A stretch of 64,000 bases of DNA from NCBI RefSeq assembly GCF_046119375.1, contig NW_027362769.1:278442001-278506000 (forward strand), written 5' to 3'. This document shows, in pieces, positions 9,001 to 64,000 of this stretch. Position numbers and translations under genes: made by a program. Position 1 is the stretch's first letter, and each line of letters opens with the position of its first letter. The notes beneath the pieces are model-generated. The model was not told the origin of the DNA, did not search any database, and saw nothing but the letters and a program-made list of their open reading frames with translations. The stretch is from Phyllobates terribilis. Its lineage: Eukaryota.

Positions 9001-10623
9001 ATAGCACCAGCCGTCATGGAGATTGTGGGAGAATACTCTGTACACACTACTGGTGATAGCACCTGCCATCATGGAGCCTGTGACTGAATACTCTGTACAC
9101 ACTACTGGTGATGGCACCTGCCGTCATGGAGTCTGTGGGAGAATACTCTGTACACACTACAGGTGATAGCACCTGCCATCATGGAGATTGTGGGAGAATA
9201 CTCTGTACACACTACTGGTGATGGCACCTGCCGTCATGGAGATTGTGGGAGAATACTCTGTACACACTACTGGTGATGGCACCTGCCGTCATTGAGCCTG
9301 TGACTGAATACTCTGTACACACTACAGGTGATAGCACCTGCCGTCATGGAGCATGTGACCGAATACTCTGTACACACTACTGGTGATAGCACCTGCCGTC
9401 ATGGAGATTGTGGGAGAATACTCTGTACACACTACTGGTGATAGCACCTGCCGTCATGGAGATTGTGGGAGAATACTCTGTACACACTACTGGTGATGGC
9501 ACCTGCCGTCATTGAGCATGTGACCGAATACTCTGTACACACTACTGGTGATAGCACCTGCCGTCATGGAGTCTGTGGGAGAATACTCTGTACACACTAC
9601 AGGTGATAGCACCTGCCATCATGGAGATTGTGGGAGAATACTCTGTACACACTACTGGTGATGGCACCTGCCGTCATGGAGATTGTGGGAGAATACTCTG
9701 TACACACTACTGGTGATGGCACCTGCCGTCATTGAGCCTGTGACTGAATACTCTGTACACACTACAGGTGATAGCACCTGCCGTCATGGAGCATGTGACC
9801 GAATACTCTGTACACACTACTGGTGATAGCACCTGCCGTCATGGAGATTGTGGGAGAATACTCTACACACTACTGGTGATGGCACCTGCCGTCATTGAGC
9901 ATGTGACCGAATACTCTGTACACACTACTGGTGATAGCACCTGCCGTCATGGAGATTGTGGGAGAATACTCTGTAGACACTACTGGTGATAGCACCTGCC
10001 GTCATGGAGTCTGTGGGAGAATACTCTGTACACACTACAGGTGATAGCACCTGCCGTCATGGAGCATGTGACCGAATACTCTGTACACACTACTGGTGAT
10101 AGCACCTGCCGTCATGGAGTCTGTGGGAGAATACTCTGTACACACTACAGGTGATAGCACCTGCCGTCATGGAGCATGTGACCGAATACTCTGTACACAC
10201 TACTGGTGATAGCACCTGCCGTCATGGAGTCTGTGGGAGAATACTCTGTACACACTACAGGTGATAGCACCTGCCGTCATGGAGCATGTGACCGAATACT
10301 CTGTACACACTACTGGTGATAGCACCTGCCGTCATGGAGTCTGTGGGAGAATACTCTGTACACACTACTGGTGATAGCACCTGCCGTCATGGAGCATGTG
10401 ACCGAATACTCTGTACACACTACTGGTGATAGCACATGCCGTCATGGAGATTGTGGGAGAATACTCTGTACACACTACTGGTGATGGCACCTGCCGTCAT
10501 GGAGCCTGTGACCGAATCCTCTGTACACACTACTGGTGATAGCACCAGCCGTCATGGAGATTGTGGGAGAATACTCTGTACACAGTAATGGTGATGGCAC
10601 CTGCCGCCATGGAGCCTGTGACC
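1..10623. repeat. 55-bp tandem satellite, ~193 units, open at the left window edge
   Basis: Consensus gcctgtg(gga/act/acc)gaatactctgtacacactac(t/a)ggtgat(g/a)gcacctgccgtcatgga. Unit starts stay in register at 1, 661, 1321 ... 9241 (multiples of 55) until one 2-bp deletion at ~9865. Array ends at ...gcctgtgacc 10623. Confidence 0.98.
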
Positions 10624-11404: not shown

Positions 11405-14112
11405 TTACATGAAGGTGGGGGTGCTGGCTGAGTGTGCGCTAGATGAAGGTGGGGTCCTGGGTGTCCGTTATATAAAGGTAGGGGTCCTGGCTGAGTGTCC
11501 GCTAGATGAAGTTGGGGTCCTGGGTGTCCGTTATATAAAGGTGGGTGTCCGTTATATAAAGGTGGGGGTCCTGGCTGAGTGTCCGCTAGATGAAGGTGGG
11601 GTCCTGGGTGTCCGTTATATAAAGGTGGGGGTCCTGGCTGAGTGTGCGCTAGATGAAGGTGGGGTCCTGGGTGTCCGTTATATAAAGGTGGGGGTCCTGG
11701 ATGAGTGTCCGCTACATGAAGGTGGGGTCCTGGGTGTGTCATTACATAAAGGTGGGGGTCCTGGATGAGTGTCCGCTACATGAAGGTGGGGTCCTGGGTG
11801 TGTCATTACATAAAGGTGGGGGTCCTGGCTGAGTGTCCGCTACATGAAGGTGGGGTCCTGGTTGTCCGTTACATAAAGGTGGGGTTCCTGGCTGAGTGTG
11901 CGCTAGATGAAGGTGGGGTCCTGGTTGTCCGTTACATAAAGGTGGGGGTCCTGGCTGAGTGTCCGCTAGATGAAGTTGGGGTCCTGGGTGTCCGTTATAT
12001 AAAGGTGGGGGTCCTGGCTGAGTGTCGGCTAGATGAAGGTGGGGTCCTGGTTGTCCGTTACATAAAGGTGGTGTCCTGGCTGAGTGTCCGCTACATGAAG
12101 GTGGGGTCCTGGTTGTCCGTTACATAAAGGTGGGGGTTCTGACTGAGTGTCCGCTAGATGAAGTTGGGGTCCTGGGTGTCCGTTATATAAAGGTGGGGGT
12201 CCTGGCTGAGTGTCCGCTAGATGAAGGTAGGGTCCTGGGTGTGTCATTACATAAAGGTGGGGGTCCTGGATGAGTGTCCGCTACATGAAGGTGGGGTCCT
12301 GGGTGTGTCATTACATAAAGGTGGGGGTCCTGGCTGAGTGTCCGCTACATGAAGGTGGGGTCCTGGTTGTCCGTTACATAAAGGTGGGGGTTCTGACTGA
12401 GTGTCCGCTAGATGAAGGTGGGGTCCTGGGTGTCCGTTACATAAAGGTGGGGGTCCTGGCTGAGTGTGCGCTACATGAAGGTGGGGTCCTGGGTGTGTCA
12501 TTACATAAAGGTGTGGGTCCTGGCTGAGTGTCCGCTACATGAAGGTGGGGTCCTGGTTGTCCGTTACATAAAGGTGGGGGTTCTGACTGAGTGTCCGCTA
12601 GATGAAGGTGGGGTCCTGGGTGTCCGTTACATAAAGGTGGGGGTCCTGGCTGAGTGTCCGCTACATGAAGGTGGGGTCCTGGTTGTCCGTTACATAAAGG
12701 TGGGGGTTCTGACTGAGTGTCCGCTACATGAAGGTGGGGTCCTGGTTGTCCGTTACATAAAGGTGGGGGTCCTGGCTGAGTGTCCGCTAGATGAAGGTGG
12801 GGTCCTGGGTGTCCGTTACATAAAGGTGGGGGTCCTGGCTGAGTGTCCGCTACATGAAGGTGGGGTCCTGGGTGTCCGTTATATAAAGGTGGGGGCCCTG
12901 GCTGAGTGTCCGCCACATGAAGATGGGGTCCTGGGTGTGTCATTACATAAAGGTGTGGGTCCTGGCTGAGTGTCCGCTACATGAAGGTGGGGTCCTGGGT
13001 GTCCGTTACATAAAGGTGGGGGTCCTGGCTGAGTGTCCGCTACATGAAGATGGGGTCCTGGGTGTGTCGTTACATGAAGGTGTGGGTCCTGGCTGAGTGT
13101 CCGCTACATGAAGGTGGGGTCCTGGGTGTCCGTTACATAAAGGTTGGGGTCCTGGCTGAGTGTCCGCTACATGAAGGTGGGGTCCTGGGTGTCCGTTACA
13201 TAAAGGTGGGGGTCCTGGCTGAGTGTCCGCTACATGAAGATGGGGTCCTGGGTGTCCGTTACATGAAAGTGGGGTTCTGGGTGTCCGTTACATAAACGTG
13301 GGGGTCCTGGCTGAGTGTCCTCTACATGAAGTTGGGGTCCTGGGTGTCCGTTACATGAAGGTGGGGGTCCTGGGTGTCCGTTACATGAAGGTGGGGCTCT
13401 GGGTGTCCGTTACATAAAGCTGGGGGTCCTGGCTGAGTGTCCACTCCATGAAGGTGGGGTCCTGGGTGTCCGTTACATGAAAGTGGGGTTCTGGGTGTCC
13501 GTTACATAAAGGTGGGGGTCCTGGCTGAGTGTCCTCTACATGAAGGTGGGGATCCTGTGTGTCCGTTACATGAAGGTGGGGGTCCTGGCTGGGTGTCCGT
13601 TACATGAAGGTGGGGATCCTGTGTGTCCTTTACATGAAGTTGGGGGTCGGGGGTCCTGGCTGGGTGTGCGTTACATGAATGTGGGGATCCTGGATGTCCT
13701 TTACATGAAGGTGCGGGTCCTGGCTGGGTGTCCATTACATGAAGGTGCGGGTCCTGGCTGGGTGTCCATTACATGAAGGTGGGGATCCTGGGTGTCCATT
13801 AATGAAGGTAGGGATCCTGGGTGTCCGTTACATGAAGGTGGGGGTTCTGGCTGGGTGTCCGTTACATGAAGGTGGGAATCCTAGGTGTCTGTTACATGAA
13901 GGTGGGGTCCTGGATGGGTGACCGTTGCATGAAGGTGGGGATCCTAGGTGTCAGCTACATGAAGGTGGGGTCCTGGGTGTCCGTTACATGAAGGTGGGGA
14001 TCCCAGGTGTTTGTCACATGAAGGTAGGGGTCCTGACTGGGTGTCCATTGCATGAAGGTGGGAGTCCTGGCTGGGTGTCCATTACATGAATGTGGGGGTC
14101 CTGGCTGGATGT
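11405..14112. repeat. 63-bp dimeric minisatellite (34+29-bp related monomers), G-rich on + strand
   Basis: Alternating ataaaggtgggggtcctggctgagtgtccgctag / atgaaggtggggtcctgggtgtccgttat. Regular to ~13300, then degenerate variable-length monomers. Confidence 0.96.
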
Positions 14113-21464: not shown

Positions 21465-23099
21465 CAGTGGGTACGGAAAGTATTCAGACCCCTTTAAATT
21501 GTTCACTCTTTGTTTCATTGCAAACATTTGGTAAATTCTAAAAAGTTAATTTTTTTTTCTCATTAAAGTACAATCTGCACCCCATCTTGACTGAAAAAAA
21601 AACAGAAATGTAGAAATTTTTGCAAAATTTATTAAAAAACTAAAGCTGAAATATCACATGGTCATAAGTATTCAGACCCTTTGCTCAGACACTCATATTT
21701 AAGTCACATGCTGTCCATTTCCTTGCAATCCTCCTTGAGATTGTTCTACTCCTTCATTGGAGTCCAGCTGTGTTTAATTAAACTGATAGGACTTGATTTG
21801 GAAAGGCACACACCTGTCTATATAAGACCTCACAGTTCACAGTGCATGTCAGACCAAATGAGAATCATGAACTCAAAGGAACTGCCCAAGGAGCTCAGAG
21901 GCAGAATTGTGGCAAGGCACATATCTGGCCAAGGTTATAAAAGAATTTCTGCATTACTCAAGGTTCCTAAGAGCACAGTGGCCTCCATAATCCTTAAATG
22001 GAAGAAGTTTGGGACCACCAGAAGTCTTCCTAGACCTGGCCGTCCAGCCAAACTGAGCAATCGTGGGAGAAGATCCTTGGTGAGAGAGGTAAAGAAGAAC
22101 CCCAAGATGACTGTGGCTGAGCTCCAGAGATGCAGTAGGGAGATGGAAGAAAGTTCCACAAAGTCAACTATCACTGCAGCCCTCCACCAGTCAGGCTTTT
22201 ATGGCCGAGTGGCCCAACGGAAGCCTCTCCTCAGTGCAAGACATATGAAAGCCTGCATAGAGTTTGCTCAGAAACACAAGAAGGACTCCAAGAGTATGAG
22301 AAATAAGATTCTCTGGTCTGATGAGACAAAGAAAGAACTTTTTGGTGATAATTCTAAGCAGTATGTGTGGAGAAAACCAGGCACCGCTCATGACCTGCCC
22401 AATACAATCCCAACAGTGAAACGTGGTGGCAGCATCATGCTATGGGGGTGTTTTTCAGCTTCAGGGACAGGACGACTGGTTGCAATTGAAGGAAACATGA
22501 ATGCGGCCAATAACAGAGATATCCTGGATGAAAACCTCTTCAAAAGTGCTCTGGACCTCAGACTTGGCCGAAGGTTCACCTTCCAACAAGACAATGACCC
22601 TAAGCACACAGCTAAAATAACAAAGGAGTGGCTTCAGAACAACTATGTGACCATTCTTGTCTGGCCCAGCCAGAGCCCTGACCTAAACCCAATTGAGCAT
22701 CTCTGGAGAGACCTGAAAATGGCTGTCCACCAACGTTCACCTTCCAACCTAACGGAACTGGAGAGGATCTGCAAGGAAGAGTGGCAGAGGATCCCCAAAT
22801 CTAGGTGTGAAAAACGTGTTGCATCATTCCCAAGAAGACTCATGGCTGTACTAGCTCAAAAGGGTGCTTCTACTCAATACTGAGCAAAGGGTCTGAATAC
22901 TTATGACCATGTGATATTTCAGTTTTTCTTTTTTAATAAATTTGTGAAAATTTCTACATTTCTGTTTTTTTTCAATCAAGATGGGGTGCAGAGTGTACTT
23001 TAATGAGAAAAAAATGAACTTTTTAGAATTTACCAAATGGCTGCAATGAAACAAAGAGTAAAAAATTTAAAGGAGTCTGAATACTTTCCGTACCCACTG
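21465..23099 (+). mobile_element. Tc1 DD34E transposon, 1635 bp, TA TSD
   Basis: TA|cagtgggtacggaaagtattcagac ... gtctgaatactttccgtacccactg|TA. Long TIRs; absent from the mirror arm (~17765). Confidence 0.97.
21867..22883 (+). CDS. Tc1 transposase, 338 aa, open frame
   Basis: MNSKELPKELR..., [23 protein letters not shown] with D-34-E spacing. No stop from ATG 21867. Lacks one residue in the usual HGGG-S motif (KRGGS). Confidence 0.9.
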   Translation: MNSKELPKELRGRIVARHISGQGYKRISALLKVPKSTVASIILKWKKFGTTRSLPRPGRPAKLSNRGRRSLVREVKKNPKMTVAELQRCSREMEESSTKSTITAALHQSGFYGRVAQRKPLLSARHMKACIEFAQKHKKDSKSMRNKILWSDETKKELFGDNSKQYVWRKPGTAHDLPNTIPTVKRGGSIMLWGCFSASGTGRLVAIEGNMNAANNRDILDENLFKSALDLRLGRRFTFQQDNDPKHTAKITKEWLQNNYVTILVWPSQSPDLNPIEHLWRDLKMAVHQRSPSNLTELERICKEEWQRIPKSRCEKRVASFPRRLMAVLAQKGASTQY

Positions 23100-29057: not shown

Positions 29058-30685
29058 CAGTACAGACCAAAAGTTTGGACACACCTTCTCATTTAAAGAT
29101 TTTTCTGTATTTTCATGACTTTGAAAATTGTACATTCACACTGAAGGCATCAAAACTATGAATTAACACATGTGGAATTATATACTTAACAAAAAAGTGT
29201 GAAACAACTGAAAATATGTCTTATATTCTAGGTTCTTCAAAGCAGCCACCTTTTGCTTTGATGACTGCTTTGCACACTCTTGGCATTCTCTTGATGAGCT
29301 TCAAGAGGTAGTCACCGGAAATGGTCTTCCAACAATCTTGAAGGAGTTGCCAGAGATGCTTAGCACTTGTTGGCCCTTTTGCCTTCACTCTGCGGTCCAG
29401 CTCACCCCAAACCATCTCGATTGGGTTCAGGTCTGGTGACTGTGGAGACCAGGTCATCTGGTGTAGCACTCCATCACTCTCCGTCTTGATCAAATAGCCC
29501 TTACACGGCCTGGAGGTGTGTTTGGGGTCATTGTCCTGTTGAAAAATAAATGATGGTCCAACTAAACGCAAACCGGATGGAATAGCATGCCGCTGCAAGA
29601 TGCTTTGGTAGCCATGCTGGTTCAGTATGCCTTCAATTTTGAATAAATCCCCAACAGTGTCACCAGCAAAGCACCCCCACACCATCACACCTCCTCCTCC
29701 ATGCTTCATGGTGGGAACCAGGCATGTAGAATCCATCCGTTCACCTTTTCTGCGTCGCACAAAGACACGGTGATTGGAACCAAAGATCTCAAATTTGGAC
29801 TCATCAGACCAAAGCACAGATTTCCACTGGTCTAATGTCCATTCCTTGTGTTCTTTAGCCCAAACTTGTCTCTTCTGCTTGTTGCCTGTCCTTAGCAGTG
29901 GTTTCCTAGCAGCTATTTTACCATGAAGGCCTGCTGCACAAAGTCTCCTCTTAACAGTTGTTGTAGAGATGTGTCTGATGCTAGAACGCTGTGTGGCATT
30001 GTCCTGGTCACAAATCCGAGCTGCTGTTAACCTGCGATTTCTGAGGCTGGTGACTCGGATAAACTTATCCTCAGAAGCAGAGGTGACTCTTGGTCTTCCT
30101 TTCCTGGGGCGGTCCTCATATGAGCCAGTTTCTTTGTAGCGCTTGATGGTTTTTGCAACTGCACTTGGGGACACTTTCAAAGTTTGCCCAATTTTTCAGA
30201 CTGACTGACCTTCATTTCTTAAAGTAATGATGGCCACTCGTTTTTTCTTTACTTAGCTTTTTTCTTGCCATAATACAAATTCTAACAGTCTATTCAGTAG
30301 GACTATCAGCTTTGTATCCACCTGACTTCTGCACAACACAACTGATGGTCCCAACCCCATTTATAAGGCAAGAAATCCCACTTATTAAACCTGACAGGGC
30401 ACACCTGTGAAGAGAAAACCATTTCTGGTGACTACCTCTTGAAGCTCATCAAGAGAATGCCAAGAGTGTGCAAAGCAGTCATCAAAGCAAAAGGTGGTTA
30501 CTTTGAAGAACCTAGAATATAAGACATATTTTCAGTTGTTTCACACTTTTTTGTTAAGTATATAATTCCACATGTGTTAGTTCATAGTTTTGATGCCTTC
30601 AGTGTGAATGTACAATTTTCAAAGTCATGAAAATACAGAAAAATCTTTAAATGAGAAGGTGTGTCCAAACTTTTGGTCTGTACTG
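29058..30685 (-). mobile_element. Tc1-family DD38E (Intruder-type) transposon, 1628 bp, TA TSD, ~270-bp TIRs
   Basis: TA|cagtacagaccaaaagtttgg ... ccaaacttttggtctgtactg|TA. Same family as 15477-17073. Confidence 0.96.
29221..30271 (-). pseudogene. DD38E transposase; 319 codons open, N-terminus broken by frameshift and stop
   Basis: WSDE; QQD-(38 residues)-E counted in QQDNDPKH...SPDLNPIE. Probable original ATG at 30271 is followed by an indel and TGA. Confidence 0.88.
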
Positions 30686-41037: not shown

Positions 41038-43747
41038 TGTAATGCACACGCCCGGACTGACTGGCATGTGCATGTTTAGTGGTTCCACTGTGCCATGAAC
41101 CGGAGAGTGTCTGGAGGGGCGTAACTAAGTATCTGCCCGATCCAACCAAGGTCGCACGACGGCATACGACGCCAGTGCACCACGGAGGAACCGAGCAGAG
41201 GGACCAGGGTCTACTCCAGGTCAGACTCCGGACATGGCTGTTGACCCACACCGGGGAATACAGGAACAGGCAGACTAAAGCGCAGGCTGGGTAGGGTCCA
41301 GTACAGACTGGGAGACAAATTCGGAGCCGCAGATGCGGTAAACAAACAGAGTAAAGCGAAACCGCAGGTGCAGTAGTCAAGGCCGAGCAGAGCAGAACCG
41401 CAGACGCGGTAGACAAGGCTGAGCAGAGCAAAACCGCAGACGCGGTAGACAAGGCTGAGCAGAGCAAAACCGCATATGCGGTAGACAAAGCTGAGCAAAG
41501 TGAAACCGCAAACGCGGTGGACAGGACTGAGCAAAGCGAAACCGCAGACGTGGTGGACAGGGCTGAGTAAAGCGAAACTGCAGACGCGGTGGACAGAGCT
41601 GAGCGAAGCGAAACCGCAGACACGGTGAACAGGGCAGAGCAAAGCGAAACCGCAGACGCAGTGGACAGGGCTGAGCAAAGCGAAGCCGCAGACGCGGTGG
41701 ACAGGGCTGAGCAAAGCGAAACCGCAGACGCGGTGGACAGGGCTGAGCAAAGCGAAACCGCAGACGCGGTGGACAGGGCTGAGCAAAGCGAAACCGCAGA
41801 CGCGGTGGACAGGGCTGAGCAAAGCGAAACCGCAGACGCGGTGGACAGGGCTGAGCAAAGCGAAACCGCAGACGCGGTGGACAGGGCTGAGCAAAGCAAG
41901 AACCGCCGAAGCGGCAAGCAAGGCAGAGCGGAGGGAACAGGGCTCAGTTCACACGGAACAGACAGGAAGGGAAAGGCAGAACCAGATACCCACAGGGTAC
42001 TTGCAGAGAAGTTCCACTGTGCCATGAACCGGAGAGTGTCTGGAGGGGCGTAACTAAGTATCTGCCCGATCCAACCAAGGTCGCACGACGGCATACGACG
42101 CCAGTGCACCACGGAGGAACCGAGCAGAGGGACCAGGGTCTACTCCAGGTCAGACTCCGGACATGGCTGTTGACCCACACCGGGGAATACAGGAACAGGC
42201 AGACTAAAGCGCAGGCTGGGTAGGGTCCAGTACAGACTGGGAGACAAATTCGGAGCCGCAGATGCGGTAAACAAACAGAGTAAAGCGAAACCGCAGGTGC
42301 AGTAGTCAAGGCCGAGCAGAGCAGAACCGCAGACGCGGTAGACAAGGCTGAGCAGAGCAAAACCGCAGACGCGGTAGACAAGGCTGAGCAGAGCAAAACC
42401 ACATATGCGGTAGACAAAGCTGAGCAAAGTGAAACCGCAGACGCGGTGGACAGGACTGAGCAAAGCGAAACCGCAGACGCGGTGGAGAGGGCTGAGCAAA
42501 GTGAAACTGCAGACGCGGTGGACAGAGCTGAGCGAAGCGAAACCGCAGACGCGGTGAACAGGGCTGAGCAAAGCGAAACCGCAGACGCGGTGGACAGAGC
42601 TGAGCGAAGCGAAACCGCAGACGCGGTGAACAGGGCTGAGCAAAGCGAAACCGCAGACGCGGTGGACAGGGCTGAGCAAAGCGAAGCCGCAGATGCGGTG
42701 GACAGGGCTGAGCAAAGCGAAACCGCAGACGCGGTGGACAGGGCTGAGCAAAGCGAAACCGCAGACGCGGTGGACAGAGCTGAGCAAAGCTAAACTGCAG
42801 ACGCGGTGGACAAGGCTGAGCAAAGCGAAACCGCAGACGCGGTGGACAGGGCTGAGCAAAGCGAAACCGCAGACGCGGTGGACAGGGCTGAGCAAAGCGA
42901 AACCGCAGACGCGGTGGACAGGGCTGAGCAAAGTGAAACCGCAGACGCGGTGGACAGGGCTGAGCAAAGCGAAACCGCAGACGCGGTGGACAGGGCTGAG
43001 CAAAGCAAGAACCGCCGAAGCGGCAAGCAAGGCAGAGTGGAGGGAACAGGGCTCAGTTCACACGGAACAGACAGGAAGGGAAAGGCAGAACCAGATACCC
43101 ACAGGGTACTTGCAGAGAAGTAGCGAGTGGACCACAAACTCACAAACGGAAGTACAGTGACAACGAGCAGGAGTTAGGTACGAGTTCAGACTCTGCAGAA
43201 AAAGGGAAGGTACGGACATAGAGAAAAACAAAACAGGCTAGGAGAGTATTCAGACAAGAACAGACACAGCAGCAAGATACAGGAGCGGGTCTAGGTAAGC
43301 GGCCCCTAGAAGGCGGAACGAACAGGCAGGAGCGTGTTCACACAGGCCTGCAAATATAGCCTCCAGGATAGGCAGAAGACAACAGGCTAGAAGATAATAC
43401 AGACAGGACACAGTTCTGATACCGAAGGCAGGAAACATAAACGGGACCTGGCATATCAGTGACCAGAAGCCAACTGACAGAACACAATGCTCAAGCATGG
43501 GTTAATTGGAGCAGCTGGTTTAAATACCAGGTGACAGACAGCAATAGGCTGAGGACGCACAAGGGGTGTGCCTGCAGCAGGTACAAAAAGCAGGAAGTGA
43601 TCGGGCGTCGCCCTTAAGCAGCAGAAACAGAAGCAAACAGACAGCATGGAGGGAAGCCAGAGAGACATTCTGGATTGGAGATCAAGTGCGCGCTCTTGCA
43701 CAGTGGGAGATGGACCACTATGCAAGGACGCCGCCAGGTATGTTACA
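41038..43747 (-). mobile_element. Solo LTR (2710 bp) with internal tandem duplication, 5-bp TSD AAAGG; related to the LTRs at 59527 and 63531
   Basis: AAAGG|tgtaatgcacacgcc ... ggtatgttaca|AAAGG. Both ends are the reverse complement of the 59527-61347 LTR ends. Confidence 0.93.
41380..43010. repeat. Two 36-bp minisatellite blocks (41380-41900, 42310-43010) inside the duplicated LTR segment
   Basis: Unit gggctgagcaaagcgaaaccgcagacgcggtggaca. Confidence 0.95.
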
Positions 43748-44692: not shown

Positions 44693-45071
44693 TTCATAAC
44701 CTTATTACACTTTCTGTCCACCTACTTTTGGACCACCCTGTATATATATATATATTGTAAGGTGGCTAATGGTCGCGTAGTCGATGGGAGGTATGTGTCA
44801 TAGAGATGGCTGGTCTCTGTGATGTAACCTGTAGTGTTTCTCTAGTGCACATAAGCATCTGGCTGTTGGGTTACTTGTAGCTAGGAGAGAATGGGCGGGT
44901 CCAGCTACCCACATACCTCACCTCTGGCTGTGGTTAACGGCCTAAAAAATGGAGGCTGTTGTTTGACACATGGTCTGTGTGTTAGACGTGCGGGCAGCGT
45001 TCCCAACAGAGACGTGTGACTGCATGTCCTGGGTATAGTCTGTCGCAAGCCAGCAGGCATCGCCAGACAAA

Positions 45072-45659
45072 ATGGAGGACTTGCTGAAACACCTGGTCCA
45101 GTCGCAGCAGCAGGAGGCCAACAGGCTGTTGTTACAGCAGATCCAGCAGCACCAGCAGGAACAATGGCAGCAGATGCAGCTTCTGGCAACCGCCATCCAG
45201 GGCAGGACGAGCGCCCCAACCCCAAGTCCGGCTGATGACACCCACGTCCGGAAGGCGGTAAAACGGGCTTTGCAGAAAATGACCCCGGGGTATGACGTTG
45301 AGGCCTTCCTGATGGTGTTTGAAAGGGTCGCCGAGAGTGAGAAACTTCTGCAAGGGCAGTGGGCAGAGGTACTGGCGCCATACTTGCTGGGAGAGCCCCA
45401 GAAGGCGTACTGTGATTTAGCTTTGCAGGACGCCAAAAAGTATGGCAAGCTAAAAACTGAGATTCTCGCACGCTTGGGGGTGACCATGACTGTCAGGGCG
45501 CAGCGGGTTCACCGCTGGGCGTATCACCAGGACAAACCACCTCACTCCCAAATGTTTGAACTGTTGCACCTGGTCCAGAAGTGGCTGCAGCCGGAGTCCT
45601 CTACACCTGCTTGCGCAGATGGTAGAGCGGGTGGTGATGGACCGGTTTTTGCAGCATAG
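45072..45659 (+). pseudogene. Gag with SCAN-like domain, truncated
   Basis: LQKMTPGYDVEAFLMVFERVA..QWAEVLAPYLLGE..LKTEILARLG..SQMFELLHLVQKWLQPE; frameshift before ERVVMDRFL. Confidence 0.85.
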
Positions 45660-45697
45660 GACGCCGTTGTTCATATTATGCATATCCGGCCTGCAGT

Positions 45698-47136
45698 GTG
45701 AACTGTCCACCCAGCGAGGGGCCTCAAGCATGTCCTGTGAAGGTGAACTGGCAGGAGGTAACGACACTGCTAGACTCCGGGAGTCTGGTGACCCTTGTGA
45801 GGGACACCCTTCCTCTCCAAATGATCGCGAGAAAAAAATTTGGCGTTCGGTGCATTCATGGTGATGCTAAGGACTACCCTATGGCCAGAGTGGACATTGA
45901 AATGGCCCACGATACTGACTCCCACGAGGTCGGCGTCGTTCAGGACTTATTGCACCCTATTATTATAGGCCGGAACTTTTGTTTATTTTGGGATCTGTGG
46001 GGGAAGGGTTCCGGGTTCGCTGGCTCAGATAAGAGACCAGTTAACCCTGATGAGGTATCACCACACCCAGAGTCAGACAGGTTTCCCTTCTTTTGTGTCC
46101 TTGTGGGGGATGAGGAGGTAGTGCTCCCTGAGTCTGACATTCCGGAGTTAGGGGTGACTAGCGAGAATTTTGGGTTTGCTCAACATAAGGACCTAACCCT
46201 GAAGGAAGCCTTTAATAATGTCACTGTCATAAATGGGGTTGCACAGGAGCGGGAGGCTGACACAAGGTTTCTCCATTTTATGATGAGTGGGGAGTTGTTG
46301 TACCGGGTCACAAAAGTGAGGGAGGAGTGTGTGGAGCAGTTAATAGTGCCGGGCCCCTATAGACGGAAGGTGTTGGACATGGCCCATTCACATGCCTTGG
46401 GGGGATATCTGGGAGTGGAAAAAAAGCAGGAACAGATCGTGCAGAGGTTCTATTGGCCCGGATGTCACCAGGAAATATTGAAGTATTGCAGGTCTTGCCC
46501 TATGTGCCAGTTAACCGCTCCCACCTCTCACTTTCGAAGTCCCCTCGTGCCATTGCCCATTATTGAAGTGCCGTTCAAGAGAATTGCTATGGACTTGGTT
46601 GGTCCCCTGGTTAAATCTGCTCGTGGTCATCAATATATATTGGTTACCCTGGACTGTGCCACCTGCTACCCTGAAGCGATTCCACTGAGAAACTCTTCTG
46701 CAAAGAGAATAGCCCGCAAGTTGGTCCACGTTTTTTCCCGAATAGGCTTACCAAAGGAGATCCTGACTGACCAGGGAACTCCCTTTATGAGTAAGGTGAT
46801 GAGGAAGTTATGCAAAGTCCTGCAAATCTCCCAACTGATAACTTCAGTGTACAATCCTCAGACAGATGGCTTTGTGGAAAGGTTTAACAAGAATCTGAAG
46901 AGTATGCTGAGGAAGGCCATAGAAAAGGACAGTAGAGACTGGGACTGTCTCCTACCTTATTTGTTGTTCTCCATCCGAGAGGTTCCACAGGCCTCTACGG
47001 GGTTCTCGCCATTCGAACTCCTGTATGGACGTCATCCGCGGGGTCTTCTGGATGTCGCAAAGGAAACCTGGGAAGCCGATGTCACGTCCCACAGGAGCAT
47101 TTTCGAGAATGTCGCTCTGATGCAGAAGAGGATTGC
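45698..47136 (+). pseudogene. Protease + integrase
   Basis: LLDSGS; H..H/C..C zinc-binding remnant; IAMDLVGP, LTDQG, QTDGFVERFN. Confidence 0.92.
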
Positions 47137-47257
47137 AAAGGTGATGATAAATAGCATAGGGATAAAATATAACCTTTATTAGAAAATTAATTAAAAAGGC
47201 CCAAAGTGAAAATGTGCATCCATAAATACAAGACGTACCATATAGTACTAAACCGTG

Positions 47258-47913
47258 GCATCCCTTCCAACACTCTTGCACCTCTCCAATCTATCCTAAA
47301 CTCTGCTGCTCGACTAATCCACCTGTCCCCCCGCTATTCCCCGGCCTCTCCTCTCTGTCAATCCCTTCACTGGCTCCCTATTGCCCAGAGAATTCAGTTC
47401 AAAACTCTAACCATGGCATACAAAGCCATCCACAACCTGTCTCCCCCATACATCTGTGACCTAGTCTCCCGGTACTTACCTGCACGCAACCTCCGATCCT
47501 CACAAGATCTCCTGCTCTACTCCCCTCTTATCTCCTCCTCCCACAATCGTATACAAGATTTCTCCCGTGCTTCCCCCCTACTCTGGAACTCTCTACCCCA
47601 ACATATCAGACTCTCGCCGACCGTGGAAACCTTCAAAAGGAACCTGAAGACCCACCTCTTCCGACAAGCCTACAACCTGCAGTAAACACCACTGCACGAC
47701 CATCTCTACCCTCACCTAATGTATCCTCACCCATCCCTTGTAGACTGTGAGCCCTCGCGGGCAGGGTCCTCGCTCCTCCTGTACCAGTCGCTGACTCGTT
47801 TTGTTAAGATTATGTAAATGCTTTTGTTATGTATATCCCTATCACATGTAAAGCACCATGGAATAAATGGCGCTTATAATAATAAATAATAAATAATAAA
47901 TAAATAATAATAA
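47258..47913 (+). mobile_element. L2 LINE 3' fragment with (aat/aaat)n tail
   Basis: LQSILNSAARLI..LHWLPIAQRIQFK..LWNSLP..FKRNLKTHLF; agactgtgagccc 3' UTR; tail 47878-47913. Confidence 0.92.
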
Positions 47914-48356
47914 ACAAGAATGCAAACAGGAAAAATTTGCCTATAGTACAGACAATCCTGTGTACAGAATGGTCAAAACATAACTTGTGAAAGACCACTT
48001 CCCAGGTAAAGTGGTGGATTCTTTAACCGTGCTATCAATGATAGAGTCCACCAAATGACCACATCCTCTCTAGCATAGTTCCCATCAGTCAGTAAACCAA
48101 ATCAATGTACATTATATTGAACAGGTATACACCTAATATATGACTATGAGGAATAATGTAGGCTAGCTTAGTACATAAAGAAATCAGCCAAGCATATAGA
48201 AAAAATACTTTTTTCCACAGTTTTAAAGAAAGCATATAACCACATATAAACAATATCACTTTGTGGTGTAGCAGAAATATCACACAATCAAAGAGGAAAC
48301 TTCAATACTTATCTGATCCTCCATTAGTGATGGGTATGAAGTCTTATATAGGCGGG

Positions 48357-48390
48357 CTCCCAACGCGTTTCCCTTTTGTCATCAGGGGAG
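48357..48390 (-). ncRNA. Minimal type I hammerhead ribozyme candidate with intact core
   Basis: CTCCC-CTGATGA-caaaagg-GAAA-CGCGT-T-GGGAG. 5-bp stem I, palindromic ACGCGT stem III, GUU triplet, vestigial stem II. Confidence 0.6.
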
Positions 48391-48447
48391 TAAAAGTGCC
48401 CATGATCATGCCCTCATTCATTAGATATGTTAAACGGCCACAACCGG

Positions 48448-50010
48448 TCAGCCAGAGTGAGGCAATTCAATCCAGGAGACCGAGTCCTCGTGCTAATTCC
48501 TACGGTGGAGAGTAAGATCTTGGCTAAGTGGCAAGGGCCGTATGAGGTGGTGGAAAAAGTAAGTGAAGTAATTACAAGGTTCATTAACTAGGACGACATA
48601 AGCCATACGAGATATACCACGTTAACCTCATCAAGCCGTGGCAAGACAGAGAGGCTGTGGAAGCTCCCTGCTTGCTGGGCAAACCAGAAGGCGACGTTGG
48701 AGTAGTCGCAATAGTGGAAACGCTAACGAAGGCCCAGAAACAGCAGTGTCGGGAGTTGCTGTTGGAGAACCGGGATCTGTTCTCTGAATTGCCGGACTGC
48801 ACAAATGTCATAGGACATGAGGTTCTGACGGAGCCACATGTGCGGGTGAATTTGAAGCCCTATCGGATACCTGAGGCCCGACGAGAGTTGATCTCAAAAG
48901 AGGTGGCTTGTATGCTGAAGCTCGGTGTCATTGAAGAATCTAAGAGCGGTTGGTCGAGCCTGATTGTTTGGTCCCAAAGCCCGATGGTGAGTGGAGATTC
49001 TGCAACGACTATCAGAAGTTGAATGAGGTCTCCAAATTCAACGCATATCCCATGCACGTGTTGATGAGCTGATCGAGAGGCTTGGGCCAGCAAGGTACAT
49101 AACCACCTTGGATCTGACAAATAGATATTGGCTGATCCCCATGGCACAGGGAGCCAAAGAGAAAACTGCATTTTCTACACCAGACGGATGCTTTCAGTAT
49201 GTCCGGATGCGTTTAGACTGCAGGGGACCCCTGCAACCTTCCAGAGAGCCATCGATCGCATCCTTGCATCCCATAAGAAATAAGCCGCAGCATACCTGGA
49301 CGATATTGTTATCTTCAGCCCAGACTGGGAGACTCATCTGGAAAAGATCCAGGTGGTGTTTGATGCTCTGAGAAAGGCAAGGTTTTCAATAAACCCAAAG
49401 AAATGTGCCATGGGGAAAGAAGAAGCCAAGTACCTCGGATATTTTGTGGGTAGAGGCAAGATAAAACCCCAAATTACTAAAGTGGAAGCAATCCAAAATT
49501 GGCCGAGACCGCTGTCGAAAAAGCAAGTCATAGCCTTTCTAGGAATAGTGGGATATTACAGGAAGTTCACCCCAAACTTCACCATGATGGCCGCACCCCT
49601 GATTGACCTCCTTAAAGGGACAAAATCAGCCATGGCCAAGTGTACTGCAGAGGCGGAGACGGCCTTTCAAGAGTTGAAAGTGGCTCTGTGTAGGCAACCG
49701 GTCCTGGTTGCCCCCAACTTCAAGAAAGGGTTTATACTCCAGACAGATGCCTCAGATGTCTGTTTAGGAGCAGTCCTTTCCCAGGAGATACACGAGGAGG
49801 AGCACCCTGTCCTCTACCTGAGTAAAAAGCTGTCCTCCTGCGAGAAAAATTATTCGGGCATAGGGAAGGAGTGCTTGGCCATAAAGTGGGCGGTGGACAC
49901 CTTGTGGCACTATCTGTTAGATCGAAAACATTTTTAACCCTACAGGACTTCCACTTCCATGTAGAACATAGAGCAGAGAAGCTACATGGTAATGCTGATG
50001 CGCTCTCGAG
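48448..50010 (+). pseudogene. Integrase C-terminus, RT and RNase H remnants of the Gmr1-like element
   Basis: DLTNRYWLIP..KTAFSTPDG, YLDDIVI, FLGIVGYYRKF, LQTDAS, ECLAIKWAV, NADALSR; several frameshifts. Confidence 0.9.
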
Positions 50011-50206
50011 AATCCCCTGTCTGGTAGTAGAAGGTGCCAACCCAGAGGGGGAGGACCTTTACTTTGTTTGTCTGATCTAAAGGCTATTTGCTTTTCTGTT
50101 TGGCTTCTGGGTTTATGAAGCAATAAACTCACATGAACTTTTAAAGGAACAAGCCTCATGTTTTCCTCCCGTCGCACCCAAGTGAGTAAAACCCCTACAA
50201 TGTATA

Positions 50207-58744: not shown

Positions 58745-59526
<782 letters not shown>

Positions 59527-59748
59527 TGTAACATACCTGGCGGCGCCCTTGCATGGTGGTCCATCTCCCACTGTGCAAGAGCGAGCACTTGATCTCCAGT
59601 CCAGAATGTCTCTCTGGCTTCCCTCCATGCTGTCTGTTTGTGTCTGTTTCTGCTGCTTAAGGGCGGCGCCCGATCACTTCCTGCTTTTTGTACCTGCTGT
59701 GGGTCACACCCCTTGTGCGTCCTCAGCCTATTGCTGTCTGTCACCTGG

Positions 59749-59788
59749 TATATAACCCAGCTGCTCCAATCAATCCCTGCCTGAGCAT
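59749..59788 (+). promoter_or_regulatory. LTR TATA box and predicted transcript 5' end
   Basis: TATATAA at 59749-59755; gcctgagcat begins 30 nt downstream (59779). Confidence 0.65.
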
Positions 59789-59882
59789 TGTGCTTCATTC
59801 AGTGTGTGCTTGCACTCTGAAGGTGCCAGGTCCCGTTCTGTGTTTCTCTTGTCTGCCTATCCTGGAGGCTGTATTTCCAGGC

Positions 59883-60890
59883 CTGTCTGAACACGCTCCT
59901 AGCCTGTTCCTCCCGCCTTCTAGGGGCCGATTACCTAGACTCGCTCCTGTATCTTGTCTGTCCTGTCTGAACACGCTCCTAGCCTGTTCCCCCCGCCTTC
60001 TAGGGGCCGATTACCTAGACCCGCTCCTGTATCTTGTCTGTCCTGTCTGAACACGCTCCTAGCCTGTTCCTCCCGCCTTCTAGGGGCAGATTACCTAGAC
60101 CCGCTCCTGTATCTTGTCTGTCCTGTCTGAACACGCTCCTTGCCTGTTCGTCCCGCCTCTCTGGGGGCCGTATTCCCAGACCCGCTCCTGTATCCCGCTG
60201 CAGTGTCGGTCTCTTCCGTACACTCAGTTCCAGTCTGAACTCTCTCCTATCCTTTACCTGTTTTGCCTCTATGTCCATTCCTTTCCTTTTTCTGCAGAGT
60301 CTGAACTCGTACCTAACTCCTGCTTGTTGTCTCTGTACTCCCGTTTGTGAGTTTGTGGTCCACTCGCTGCTTCACTGCGGGTGCCCTGTTGGTGTCTGGC
60401 TCTGCCTTTCCCTTCCTGTCTGTTCCGTGTGAACTGAGCCCTGTCCGTCCTGCTCTGACTCCTTGCTCACTGCTCTGGCAGCCTTGCTCCGCTCTGACCC
60501 TTTTGCTCACTGCTCCGGCAGCCTTGCTCCGCTCTGACCCTTTTGCTCACTGCTCCGGCAGCCTTGCTCCGCTCTGACCCTTTTGCTCACTGCTCCGGCA
60601 GTCTCGTCCTGCTCTGCTCTTGCTCACCGCTCCAGGCGGTCTCGTCCTGCCCTGCTCTTGCTCACCGCTCCAGGCGGTCTCGTCCTGCCCTGCTCTTGCT
60701 CACCGCTCCGGGCGGTCTCGTCCTGCCCTGCTCTTGCTCACCGCTCCGGGCGGTCTCGTCCTGCCCTGCTCTTGCTCACCGCTCCGGGCGGTCTCGTCCT
60801 GCCCTGCTCTTGCTCACCGCTCCGGGCGGTCTCGTCCTGCCCTGCTCTTGCTCACCGCTCCGGGCGGTCTCGTCCTGCCCTGCTCTCGCT
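59883..60890. repeat. Tandem repeats within the LTR: 80-bp x4 (59883-60190), 40-bp x3 and 38-bp x~7 (60480-60890)
   Basis: Anchors at 59883/59963/60043/60123; 60481/60521/60561; 60601/60639/60677... Confidence 0.9.
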
Positions 60891-61349
60891 CACCTCTCTG
60901 GGCGGCCTCACTCTGCTGTGTTTGTCCGCCACATCTGTGGTTCTGTTCCAGAGTCCCAGTGTGTACTGGGTCCTATCCCGCCTGTGTTCCTACCTGCTAG
61001 TGCCTTCCTGTCTGCACTCTAGCCGTGCTTGCCTGTACCCCCCTGCCTGCATACCCGCCTGCCTGCATACCAGTCGTGCCTGCCTATTCCCACCAGTCTG
61101 TGTGTCAGCCTAACCAGTCTGTTCCTGTATTCCCCTGTGTGGGTCAACAGCCGTGTCCGGGGTCTGTCCTGGAGTAGCACCTGGTCCCTCTGCTCGGTTC
61201 CTCCTTGGTGCACTGGCGTCGTATGCCGTCGTGCGACCCTGGTCGGATCGGGTGAATACCTAGTTACGCCCCTCCAGGCATTCACTCTCCGGCACGGACC
61301 AGTGGAATCACACGCACACGCCGCTCAGCCCGGGCGTGTGCATTACAGC

Positions 61350-61359
61350 ATGCTCAGGC
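61350..61359 (+). promoter_or_regulatory. Self-priming-type PBS
   Basis: atgctcaggc, 2 nt after the LTR end, is the exact reverse complement of 59779-59788; no TGG tRNA-type PBS present. Confidence 0.7.
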
Positions 61360-61488
61360 CATGGTTCCCGTTGAGCCCCACGGCCTTCGCTCTCTGAGAC
61401 GTTTTCCAGCGAATACATGCATTAAAAATAAATAAATACAATTTTTTTTTCTCTAGCTGAGTTCCTGGCTAATTACGCACCCGTCCAG

Positions 61489-63408
61489 ATGGATCTATCT
61501 GCTCTCGTTCCTGCGGATCCGCCACGTTACTATGGGGATCCAAGACAAAGTCGTGCATCTGTGGAGCAATGCATGCTACACTTCAAGTTCTACCCTCTAT
61601 GTTTTCCCACCGATCGGGTTAAGGTGGCATTCATTATGTCTAACCTAGCGGGTGATGCCTTGGAATGGATCAACCCCCTATGGGAAACACAGGATCCTAT
61701 CGTCCTGGACATAATGGCCTTCCTGGTGGCCTTTCTAATGGTCTTCGATGATCCTAACCCGGAGGCTCCTGCTGAAGCTTCACTTCCCAATATCCCGGAG
61801 CAGCCCCGATGGGTAATGTGTGTGGGTAGCGCAATAGTCCTCCAGCCCAATGAGACTACTGCCCACCCAGAATCCTCACAGGGTGACTACGCTCTCCGGA
61901 ATACTTCTCCCAACCTCAAGAGGCAGTCCAGACGTGCTAGACGTAGAGGCAAGCCGTCACGCCAGGGTCTGTCCTCCCTGAGACCTCCTGACCCCAACCT
62001 TGAAGTCCCTACTGAAGCTTCATCTCCCTGTATCCCGGAGAAGCCCCAACGGGTAATGTGCGTGGGTAGTGCACCAGTTCTCCTGCCCGAAGAGACTACT
62101 GCCCATCCAGACTCCACACAGGAGAACTTCCTGCACCCGGCATCAGATGCTTCACCCACTTTAATCGGTGTGCATGTCCAAGGATGCTCCGAAGCTGTGA
62201 TTACCTCAGAGTCTGTGCACCTCTACTACCTGGCGGAGGACCCCCAGTTGCCTCCTGAATCCTCCGGGATACCACTCGATGACAAATGGAGAGAGACTTC
62301 TCTACACCTGGTACTCGATACTTTGTCCGCTCCGTCCTGTGAGCCTGACAATGGGTACCCCAAAGTGGTAGATACCCCCGAGTCTCTACACCCCTCCGAC
62401 CAGGCGGAGGACCTCCAGTTGTCTCCAGAACCCTTCGGGGTACTACCTGGTAGCGAAAGGACAGAGACTCTCCTATACTCTGTACCTGATACCTCGCTCG
62501 CTTCGTCCAGTGAGTCCAACCTAGTGTACTCTGAAGCAGAGGTTACCCATGAGTCTCTACACCCCTCCGACCAGGCGGAGGACCTCCAGTTGTCTCCAGA
62601 ACCCTTCGGGGTGCTACCTGGTAGCGAAAGGACAGAGACTCTCCTATACTCTGTATCTGATACCTCGCTCGCTTCGTCCAGTGAGTCCAACCTAGTGTAC
62701 TCTGAAGCAGGGGTTACCCATGAGTCTCTACACCCCTCTGACCAGGCGGAGGACCTCCAGTTGTCTCCAGAACCCTTCGGGGTGCTACCTGGTAGCGAAA
62801 GGACAGAGACTCTCCTATACTCTGCACCTGATACCTCGCTCGCTTCGTCCAGTAAGTCCAACCTAGTGTACTCCGAAGCAGAGGATACTCCCGAGTCTCT
62901 ACACCCCTCCGACCGGGCGGAGGACATCCAGTTGTCTCCAGAACCCTTCGGGGTGCCACCTGGTGGTGAATGGACAGAGACTTTCCTATACTCGGTACCC
63001 GATACCTCGCCTGCTTCGTCCAGTGAGTCCGACCTAGTGTACTCTGAAGCAGATGTTTTCTCCGAGCCTCTGCACTCTTCTGACCCGGCGGAGGACCTCC
63101 AGTTGTTTCCTGAATCCTCCGGGGTACCACCAGATAACAAAGAGACAGTGATTTTTCCTCATCCTGTACCTGATAACCCGTCTAATTCTTCCTGTGAGCT
63201 TGACAAGATGTACCTCGAAGCAGAGTTTACCCCCAAGTCTCTGCTCCCCTCCAACCCGGTGGAGGACTTCCAGTTGTCTCCTGTACCCTCTGGGGTGCCA
63301 CCTGAAAATATGTGGAGAGAGACTTCCTTGTGTGCTGTTCTTGGTACTCCACCCGTTTCGTCTGTTGCTGAGGATGGCTGGATAGGAGGTAGCAACCTAG
63401 CTAACTAG
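61489..63408 (+). CDS. 639-aa ORF: sushi/RTL(PEG10/LDOC1)-like Gag N-terminal capsid segment + acidic P/S/E-rich tandem repeats
   Basis: PPRYYGDPRQSRASVEQCMLHF..FPTDRVKVAFIMSNLAGDALEWINPLWE..FLMVFDDP resembles the DUF4939/retrotransposon-gag motif; then an 80-aa-spaced duplication and seven 57-aa units; no stop. Confidence 0.8.
   Translation: MDLSALVPADPPRYYGDPRQSRASVEQCMLHFKFYPLCFPTDRVKVAFIMSNLAGDALEWINPLWETQDPIVLDIMAFLVAFLMVFDDPNPEAPAEASLPNIPEQPRWVMCVGSAIVLQPNETTAHPESSQGDYALRNTSPNLKRQSRRARRRGKPSRQGLSSLRPPDPNLEVPTEASSPCIPEKPQRVMCVGSAPVLLPEETTAHPDSTQENFLHPASDASPTLIGVHVQGCSEAVITSESVHLYYLAEDPQLPPESSGIPLDDKWRETSLHLVLDTLSAPSCEPDNGYPKVVDTPESLHPSDQAEDLQLSPEPFGVLPGSERTETLLYSVPDTSLASSSESNLVYSEAEVTHESLHPSDQAEDLQLSPEPFGVLPGSERTETLLYSVSDTSLASSSESNLVYSEAGVTHESLHPSDQAEDLQLSPEPFGVLPGSERTETLLYSAPDTSLASSSKSNLVYSEAEDTPESLHPSDRAEDIQLSPEPFGVPPGGEWTETFLYSVPDTSPASSSESDLVYSEADVFSEPLHSSDPAEDLQLFPESSGVPPDNKETVIFPHPVPDNPSNSSCELDKMYLEAEFTPKSLLPSNPVEDFQLSPVPSGVPPENMWRETSLCAVLGTPPVSSVAEDGWIGGSNLAN
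62209..63350 (+). repeat. 171-bp (57-codon) in-frame tandem repeat, about 7 units
   Basis: Anchors at 62209, 62380, 62551, 62722, 62893, 63064 and 63235 (all +171). Confidence 0.95.
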
Positions 63409-63500
63409 ATGAGACCAGTTTTTCCTGTGGACAGTGGGAGTGATCTCCTTAAAGTGAAGGATTGGCCCTCGAATTCCCTGCGGAAGATTCTGGCAGGCCT

Positions 63501-63527
63501 GAAGAAGAGGGGGCGTAAGGGGGGGGG
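63501..63527 (+). other. Polypurine tract
   Basis: gaagaagagggggcgtaaggggggggg ending 3 nt before the 3' LTR TG. Confidence 0.85.
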
Positions 63528-64000
63528 TACTGTAACATACCTGGCGGCGCCCTTGCATGGTGGTCCATCTCCCACTGTGCAAGAGCGCGCACTTGATCTC
63601 CAGTCCAGAATGTCTCTCTGGCTTCCCTCCATGCTGTCTGTTTGTGTCTGTTTCTGCTGCTTAAGGGCGGCGCCCGATCACTTCCTGCTTTTTGTACCTG
63701 CTGTGGGTCACACCCCTTGTGCGTCCTCAGCCTATTGCTGTCTGTCACCTGGTATATAACCCAGCTGCTCCAATCAATCCCTGCCTGAGCATTGTGCTTC
63801 ATTCAGTGTGTGCTTGCACTCTGAAGGTGCCAGGTCCCGTTCTGTGTTTCTCTTGTCTGCCTATCCTGGAGGCTGTATTTCCAGGCCTGTCTGAACACGC
63901 TCCTAGCCTGTTCCTCCCGCCTTCTAGGGGCCGATTACCTAGACTCGCTCCTGTATCTTGTCTGTCCTGTCTGAACACGCTCCTAGCCTGTTCCCCCCGC

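Follow-up and report, generated by a model that had tools for sequence, protein, structure and literature searches.

A recent pol-less chromovirus-type element in a frog genome with a predicted self-primer in its own LTR

The window analysed here, a stretch of 64,000 nucleotides from a 10.57-Gb vertebrate assembly, contains near its 3' end a long terminal repeat (LTR) retrotransposon. This is very probably a complete, recent, pol-less member of a chromovirus family, with a primer binding site (PBS) that complements a decamer of its own LTR, likely primed by its own RNA and copied with enzymes that likely come from a pol-bearing relative. Proof of self-priming exists for fission yeast alone; for vertebrate relatives it is inferred. 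Butler et al. are said to have inferred it for vertebrate chromoviruses in 2001. It is called a common feature of the Tf1/sushi group, vertebrate members included, in PMC6317226 and bioRxiv 10.1101/2022.12.06.519325, both citing Butler et al. 2001. Pairing with the PBS in Tf1 involves the first 11 bases, with RNase H cleavage falling between bases 11 and 12 (PMC7175516), and the PBS region is described as a three-duplex "pretzel" (bioRxiv 10.1101/2022.12.06.519325). Frog genomes are rich in Amn-san chromoviruses (PMC4131045).

The element and its primer complement

The features of the element, and a related solo LTR, are listed here by position in the window and strand.

59522-59526 (+): 5' copy of the 5-bp target-site duplication (TSD) CCTTC, a perfect duplication
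59527-61347 (+): 5' LTR, 1,821 nt, TG...CA (TGTAACA...CATTACA), ends set by the 3' LTR and the CCTTC TSD
59749-59755 (+): TATA box TATATAA, 30 nt ahead of the self-primer decamer
59779-59788 (+): predicted self-primer GCCTGAGCAT, the predicted first 10 nt of the RNA, from TATA spacing and sequence
59882-61083 (+): minisatellite arrays with 80-, 40-, 38- and 16-nt units, within R/U5
61314-61341 (+): predicted 9-bp U5 hairpin, GCACACGCC, a 10-nt loop and GGCGTGTGC, 6 nt inside the LTR end
61350-61359 (+): PBS ATGCTCAGGC, after a 2-nt spacer (GC) from the LTR, perfect complement of 59779-59788
61361-61435 (+): upstream ORF of 24 codons, starting where the pol-bearing relative L224 begins gag (CCATGG after the PBS)
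61421-61456 (+): ATTAAA/AATAAA hexamers, then a T tract and AG, candidate poly(A)-signal-like or splice-acceptor-like
61489-63408 (+): ORF of 639 aa, partial Ty3-type capsid and acidic repeats
63462-63530 (+): relic of the pol 3' end and polypurine tract (PPT), the last ~50 nt 80-87% identical to the P lineage (see below)
63531-64000 (+): start of the 3' LTR, 1,705 nt in total, ending 1,235 nt past the window, with TATA at 63753 and the decamer at 63783
After about 65235, just outside the window (+): 3' copy of CCTTC, a perfect match to the 5' copy
41038-43747 (-): solo LTR of another subfamily, ~81% identical, TSD CCTTT, with an internal duplication

The element has the features of an LTR retrotransposon: two TG...CA LTRs, here separated by 2,183 nt, a 5-bp TSD, a PPT ahead of the 3' LTR and a Ty3-type gag (a weak match to DUF4939). 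Apart from gaps in minisatellite copy number, the two LTRs have 10 mismatches in 1,705 aligned columns; the first 355 nt contain one of these and the last 230 nt are identical, which marks the insertion as recent.

The first-pass annotation had reported TATATAA at 59749 with GCCTGAGCAT 30 nt downstream, a perfect 10-bp complement ATGCTCAGGC 2 nt past the LTR, and the absence of a tRNA-type PBS. The first two motifs are present at these positions, and the complement is confirmed with the LTR end fixed by the TSD. It is exactly 10 nt long, with no extension on either side, and the only other occurrence of either decamer in the window is in the 3' LTR copy (63783). The sequence that follows the 5' LTR (59527-61347) has no TGG start, nor does any of the nine PBS variants described below, in line with the lack of a tRNA-type PBS. 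The annotation was likewise right that the signal spans a minisatellite loop of ~1.57 kb in a pol-less element; the loop between the decamer and the PBS measures 1,561 nt and consists mostly of minisatellites with 80-, 40- and 38-nt units. That the decamer at 59779 is the mRNA 5' end is a prediction from the TATA spacing.

Elsewhere in the window, satellite arrays occupy 1-10622 and 11409-14107 (a 55-nt unit repeated 193 times and a 63-nt unit repeated about 41 times), and Tc1/mariner transposase ORFs are found at 21636-22883 (+) and 29221-30195 (-), within nested inverted repeats. The internal duplication of the solo LTR is ~1 kb long, and this LTR sits in a Tc1/mariner-like transposase gene. 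A gypsy element at about 44757-50200, in which integrase precedes the reverse transcriptase (RT), a Gmr1-like order, is unrelated; it is degraded and broken by other insertions. Scans for tRNA genes in the window and for Rfam families in 59400-64000 found nothing.

Covariation of primer and PBS

Relatives were gathered by Pfam search and not by primer sequence; 20 of each were fetched, plus 15 BEL/Pao controls and five variant copies. LTR ends were called, blind to the PBS, from paired TG...CA ends and a perfect 5-bp TSD, which succeeded in 38 of 90 loci, and three families were added with ends from LTR self-alignment only. In 31 of the 35 called chromovirus-type elements the LTR perfectly complements 10 nt or more from offset +2 (9 nt or more in 33 of 35); 22 of these 35 are members of the pol-less family, picked because their PBS was intact and without regard to the 5' motif. 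In those 31 elements a TATA-like hexamer starts 27-32 nt upstream of the complement, judged by a permissive list to which one hexamer was added after the L140 family was seen. None of three BEL/Pao control elements has the complement (3 of 15 loci were callable, all of one family). These elements (L266, L272 and L277) are also without a TGG-type PBS, and the first 7 nt past the LTR are complemented within their LTRs, which is too short to judge. When offsets 0-499 were scanned in seven elements, the complement at +2 was present in all six of the chromovirus type vs none in the single BEL element, and of the 3,493 decamers outside the PBS only 3 were perfectly complemented at some place in the LTR.

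There are eight family-level decamers, namely GCCTGAGCAT, GCCCGAGCAA, GCCTGAGTAT, GCTAGAGTAT, GCTTGAGTAT, GCTTGTGTAT, GCGCTCAGAT and GCGCTCTGAT, each matched by its own PBS. A ninth, GCTCGAGCAA, is known from a single copy and is likewise complemented by its own PBS. All nine lie ~30 nt past a TATA-like hexamer and have the PBS at the same +2 offset. Seven of the ten positions vary, with up to six mismatches between families, while G1, C2 and A9 are constant. Two close family pairs, L214/L223 and L153/L137, differ by one compensated change each. Because the families are related, the 31 cases come down to few independent covariation events, about 8-10 changes.

The first-pass annotation had named covariation of the start site and the PBS across subfamilies as a check. 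Such covariation is found between families, where every decamer has its own complementary PBS at a constant offset, but not among the subfamilies of the pol-less family, in which the decamer is invariant while both flanks differ. The spacing between TATA and decamer is the same across these subfamilies. The main claim of the annotation, a putative Tf1/sushi-type self-priming signature, is well backed by the covariation, the fixed geometry, the lack of a TGG-type PBS and the chromodomain-bearing pol of the relatives.

Variants in single copies were followed as well. The solo LTR carries GCTTGAGCAT in place of the decamer (43487-43496), as the annotation had said, and 22 LTRs have the same form. 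Where both LTRs could be read, the partner LTR was unchanged in 10 of 10 copies, and a matching PBS was present in none of the nine that were readable. By these counts GCTTGAGCAT is a sporadic post-insertion change; with the partner LTRs unchanged and the PBSs unmatched, the accompanying argument that it could still pair through G-U is uninformative. Similarly, 13 copies have the PBS ATGCTCAAGC, with a matching change of the 5' LTR in none of nine readable cases. For one PBS variant of the P lineage, 30 of 59 copies were examined and 26 were readable; 25 of these were uncompensated and one (L281) was compensated. L281 (also L284) carries one primer change in both LTRs and compensates for it in the PBS. 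Within the first 100 of 223 LTR matches for that change, four elements have it in both LTRs, and only one of the four is also present in the complete list of 59 PBS variants that match; in three further two-LTR variant copies the PBS was unreadable. This pattern fits, anecdotally, a primer that enters both LTRs first and is written into the PBS one generation later. Nearly all single-copy variants are uncompensated, as expected for post-insertion mutation, and lend no support.

A large family and its pol-bearing relatives

Two exact patterns of LTR end plus PBS gave 3,448 and 5,718 matches in the genome, vs 5 and 9 for the reversed controls, so that summed over the two patterns the pol-less family has at least 9,166 copies. 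In a check of the second pattern, 30 of 30 loci carried the LTR end and the leader of the family. Head-to-tail arrays of the family, with ~4-kb spacing, are seen among the pattern matches (e.g. G000 C1:86492394-86504724). Inside the 30 full-length copies there is no pol in sense orientation, and the pol matches in five of these loci are flanking or antisense nested elements. The internal region is 1,396-2,869 nt long in the 22 called copies. Protease, RT, RNase H and integrase are all missing from what the element encodes, and in this respect it does not count as autonomous. Thousands of young copies without pol imply copying in trans, which is what the first-pass annotation had suggested for the element.

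The first ~105 aa of the 639-aa ORF resemble the N-terminal part of the Ty3 capsid (DUF4939, E 6e-6, below the curated cut-off), and the remainder is made up of acidic repeats, including 57-aa units, with neither zinc knuckle nor pol. The Gag-like part is 41-51% identical to the Gag of intact relatives that match Retrotrans_gag and Ty3_capsid. Of 98 distinct copies, a sample biased to young ones, 68 keep this half-capsid ORF (61489-63408) open over 453 codons or more, and the capsid-like part of the ORF has pN/pS of 0.45-0.62 in pairwise, non-independent comparisons. The truncated Gag seems to be under some constraint, as far as these copies tell.

TRIM, LARD and gag-only elements keep LTRs, PBS and PPT, lack pol, occur at high copy number and are mobilised in trans. 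Unlike these elements, the frog element has a putative self-primer instead of a tRNA PBS, and a long ORF with an N-terminal capsid part and acidic repeats.

The pol-bearing relatives encode RT, RNase H, integrase, a Tf2-type SH3 domain and a chromodomain. The chromodomain (PF00385) scores above the cut-off in all three that were tested (L224, L140 and L223) and so probably places them in the Tf1/sushi (chromovirus) group. The 30 best SH3_Tf2-1 matches (L154-L183) were left out of the analysis; they lie on small unplaced contigs, score above the chromosomal matches and could represent foreign DNA within the assembly. Among the pol-bearing lineages found, the closest, called P here (L224, L226 and L229), encodes protease, RT, RNase H, integrase, SH3 and chromodomain, and has 20,504 matches to a relaxed PBS pattern. 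It has in common with the pol-less family the CCATGG past the PBS, the PPT region (80-87% over ~50 nt) and, in some P copies, part of U5 (about 80% over 100 nt). Gag identity between the two is 48-51%, and a Gag tree of local families groups them with moderate support (82/83). The P-lineage primer differs from GCCTGAGCAT at two of ten positions, and no pol-bearing element with an identical PBS was found in 30 full-length loci or in the first 100 of the 20,504 relaxed-pattern matches. Since the pol-bearing relatives carry a chromodomain and the pol-less element still contains a remnant of the 3' end of P-lineage pol, this element is likely of chromovirus origin.

Leader RNA, alternative roles of the decamer and a proposed mechanism

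When the predicted 1,649-nt leader is folded, the pairing probabilities between primer and PBS are 0.76-0.94 for nine of the pairs and 0.43 for the tenth. In global folds the duplex forms in four of six elements and is absent in L153 and L224. The stem of the U5 hairpin is pairable in 90 of 98 copies, while the loop differs between subfamilies. Flanking duplexes in the style of Tf1 amount to only 4-5 bp beside the central duplex, together with the 9-bp U5 hairpin, whose loop might pair over 7 bp with 61370-61376, though without covariation. For the pairing as a whole, complementarity and covariation are seen directly in the DNA, and the RNA structure is a model prediction.

No canonical poly(A) hexamer is present in the LTR. 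ATTAAA/AATAAA occur in the element only at 73-83 nt past the 5' LTR, where they are followed by the T tract and AG just before the ORF, an arrangement found in four of five subfamily copies checked, and the transcribed LTR has a single GT[AG]AG donor-like site, at 60347. Either splicing removes U5, PBS and upstream ORF, or a short leader RNA is polyadenylated near the hexamers, if these candidate signals are used.

It is possible, if improbable, that the decamer primes but is delivered from the 3' LTR or by a second RNA, such as a cleaved or terminated transcript, and not as the element's own capped 5' end. The decamer occurs in both LTRs, and in the pol-less family 1.0-2.7 kb of loop part it from the PBS, as would suit such delivery. 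Yet in all families it sits at the start-site position, 29-32 nt past a TATA-like hexamer, and all nine variants begin with GC. The four two-LTR variants, one of them in the PBS list, are compatible with two-step inheritance of a 5' primer, but they are too few to decide.

A second reading, which we consider very unlikely, takes the duplex as a structural signal (for packaging, translation control or circularisation of the leader) and assumes that another primer is used. Sequence analysis cannot show priming, and the predicted duplex would bury both cap and PBS. This has to be set against the exact position of the duplex, which is that of the PBS in every family, against the fact that no alternative primer site is seen, and against Tf1, where the identical arrangement is the proven primer (PMC7175516).

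Priming by a tRNA or tRNA fragment is hardly credible. One candidate site is TGGTTCCC (61362-61369), an 8-nt motif starting with TGG, which we take to resemble the complement of the tRNA-Glu 3' end; however, it lies 14 nt past the LTR end that is fixed by the TSD, and its TGG belongs to the old gag start context CCATGG and is not conserved, the P lineage having ATGGAACCC there. Moreover, 0 of 9 PBS variants start with TGG and each tracks its own LTR. Finally, chance might be invoked for a match of only 10 nt within a 1.8-kb LTR, but its probability is negligible given the off-target rate of 3 in 3,493 and a fixed geometry repeated with different letters in eight families, and the covariation refutes it.

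Under self-priming from the element's own 5' end, transcription would start at about 59779, going by the TATA spacing, and the first 10 nt of the RNA (predicted primer GCCUGAGCAU) would pair with the PBS, closing the 1.56-kb R/U5 loop. By analogy with Tf1, the RNase H of the RT would cut after nucleotide 10, and the fragment would prime minus-strand DNA. RT, RNase H and integrase would have to be supplied in trans, since the family has no pol. As the helper we lean somewhat towards the abundant P lineage, going by its likeness to the family. The primer of this helper differs at two of ten positions, and recognition would therefore rest on structure and not on exact sequence. We give about an even chance to the full scenario, in which more than 9,000 pol-less half-capsid elements were copied by a helper with a different primer, whose RNase H would act on a foreign self-primer duplex that spans 1-2.7 kb of minisatellites and lacks the full Tf1 pretzel.

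By every sequence test available, the element would work like Tf1. As in Tf1 and Tf2 of Schizosaccharomyces pombe (with Tj1, Tosmo1-3 and Tcry1), there is no tRNA PBS and the PBS complements the RNA 5' end, here a predicted one, and there is a chromodomain-bearing Ty3/gypsy pol, here in the autonomous relatives. Unlike in Tf1, the complement is 10 nt and not 11, the loop contains 1.0-2.7 kb of minisatellites, the pretzel is not clearly formed, pol and half of Gag are missing, and self-priming is a prediction from sequence. The element also resembles the vertebrate V-clade of the Tf1/sushi group (sushi-ichi and Amn-ichi/ni/san), vertebrate chromoviruses with inferred self-priming, and its LTR ends (TGTAACA start) loosely fit the Sushi motif TGTYANR...CNTNACA given in PMC3601003. 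In contrast to V-clade elements the pol-less family is non-autonomous, and it is likened to them by features and not by named sushi or Amn-san sequences.

The mechanism itself is already known, and the gain is confirmatory. A literature search, covering work other than Butler 2001 and the Levin papers, gave nothing specific on self-priming in non-autonomous or amphibian elements. With eight families that have compensated primers, the comparative support in a vertebrate is unusually clear, and the system is of high copy number and recently active, in which start site and cleavage could be readable directly from germline RNA. If the proposed reading is true, a 10-bp duplex with G1, C2 and A9 fixed is all that self-priming needs, and the passage of primer mutations into the PBS is recorded in tens of thousands of genomic copies. 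The genome also suggests that the signal may act in trans and across very long loops.
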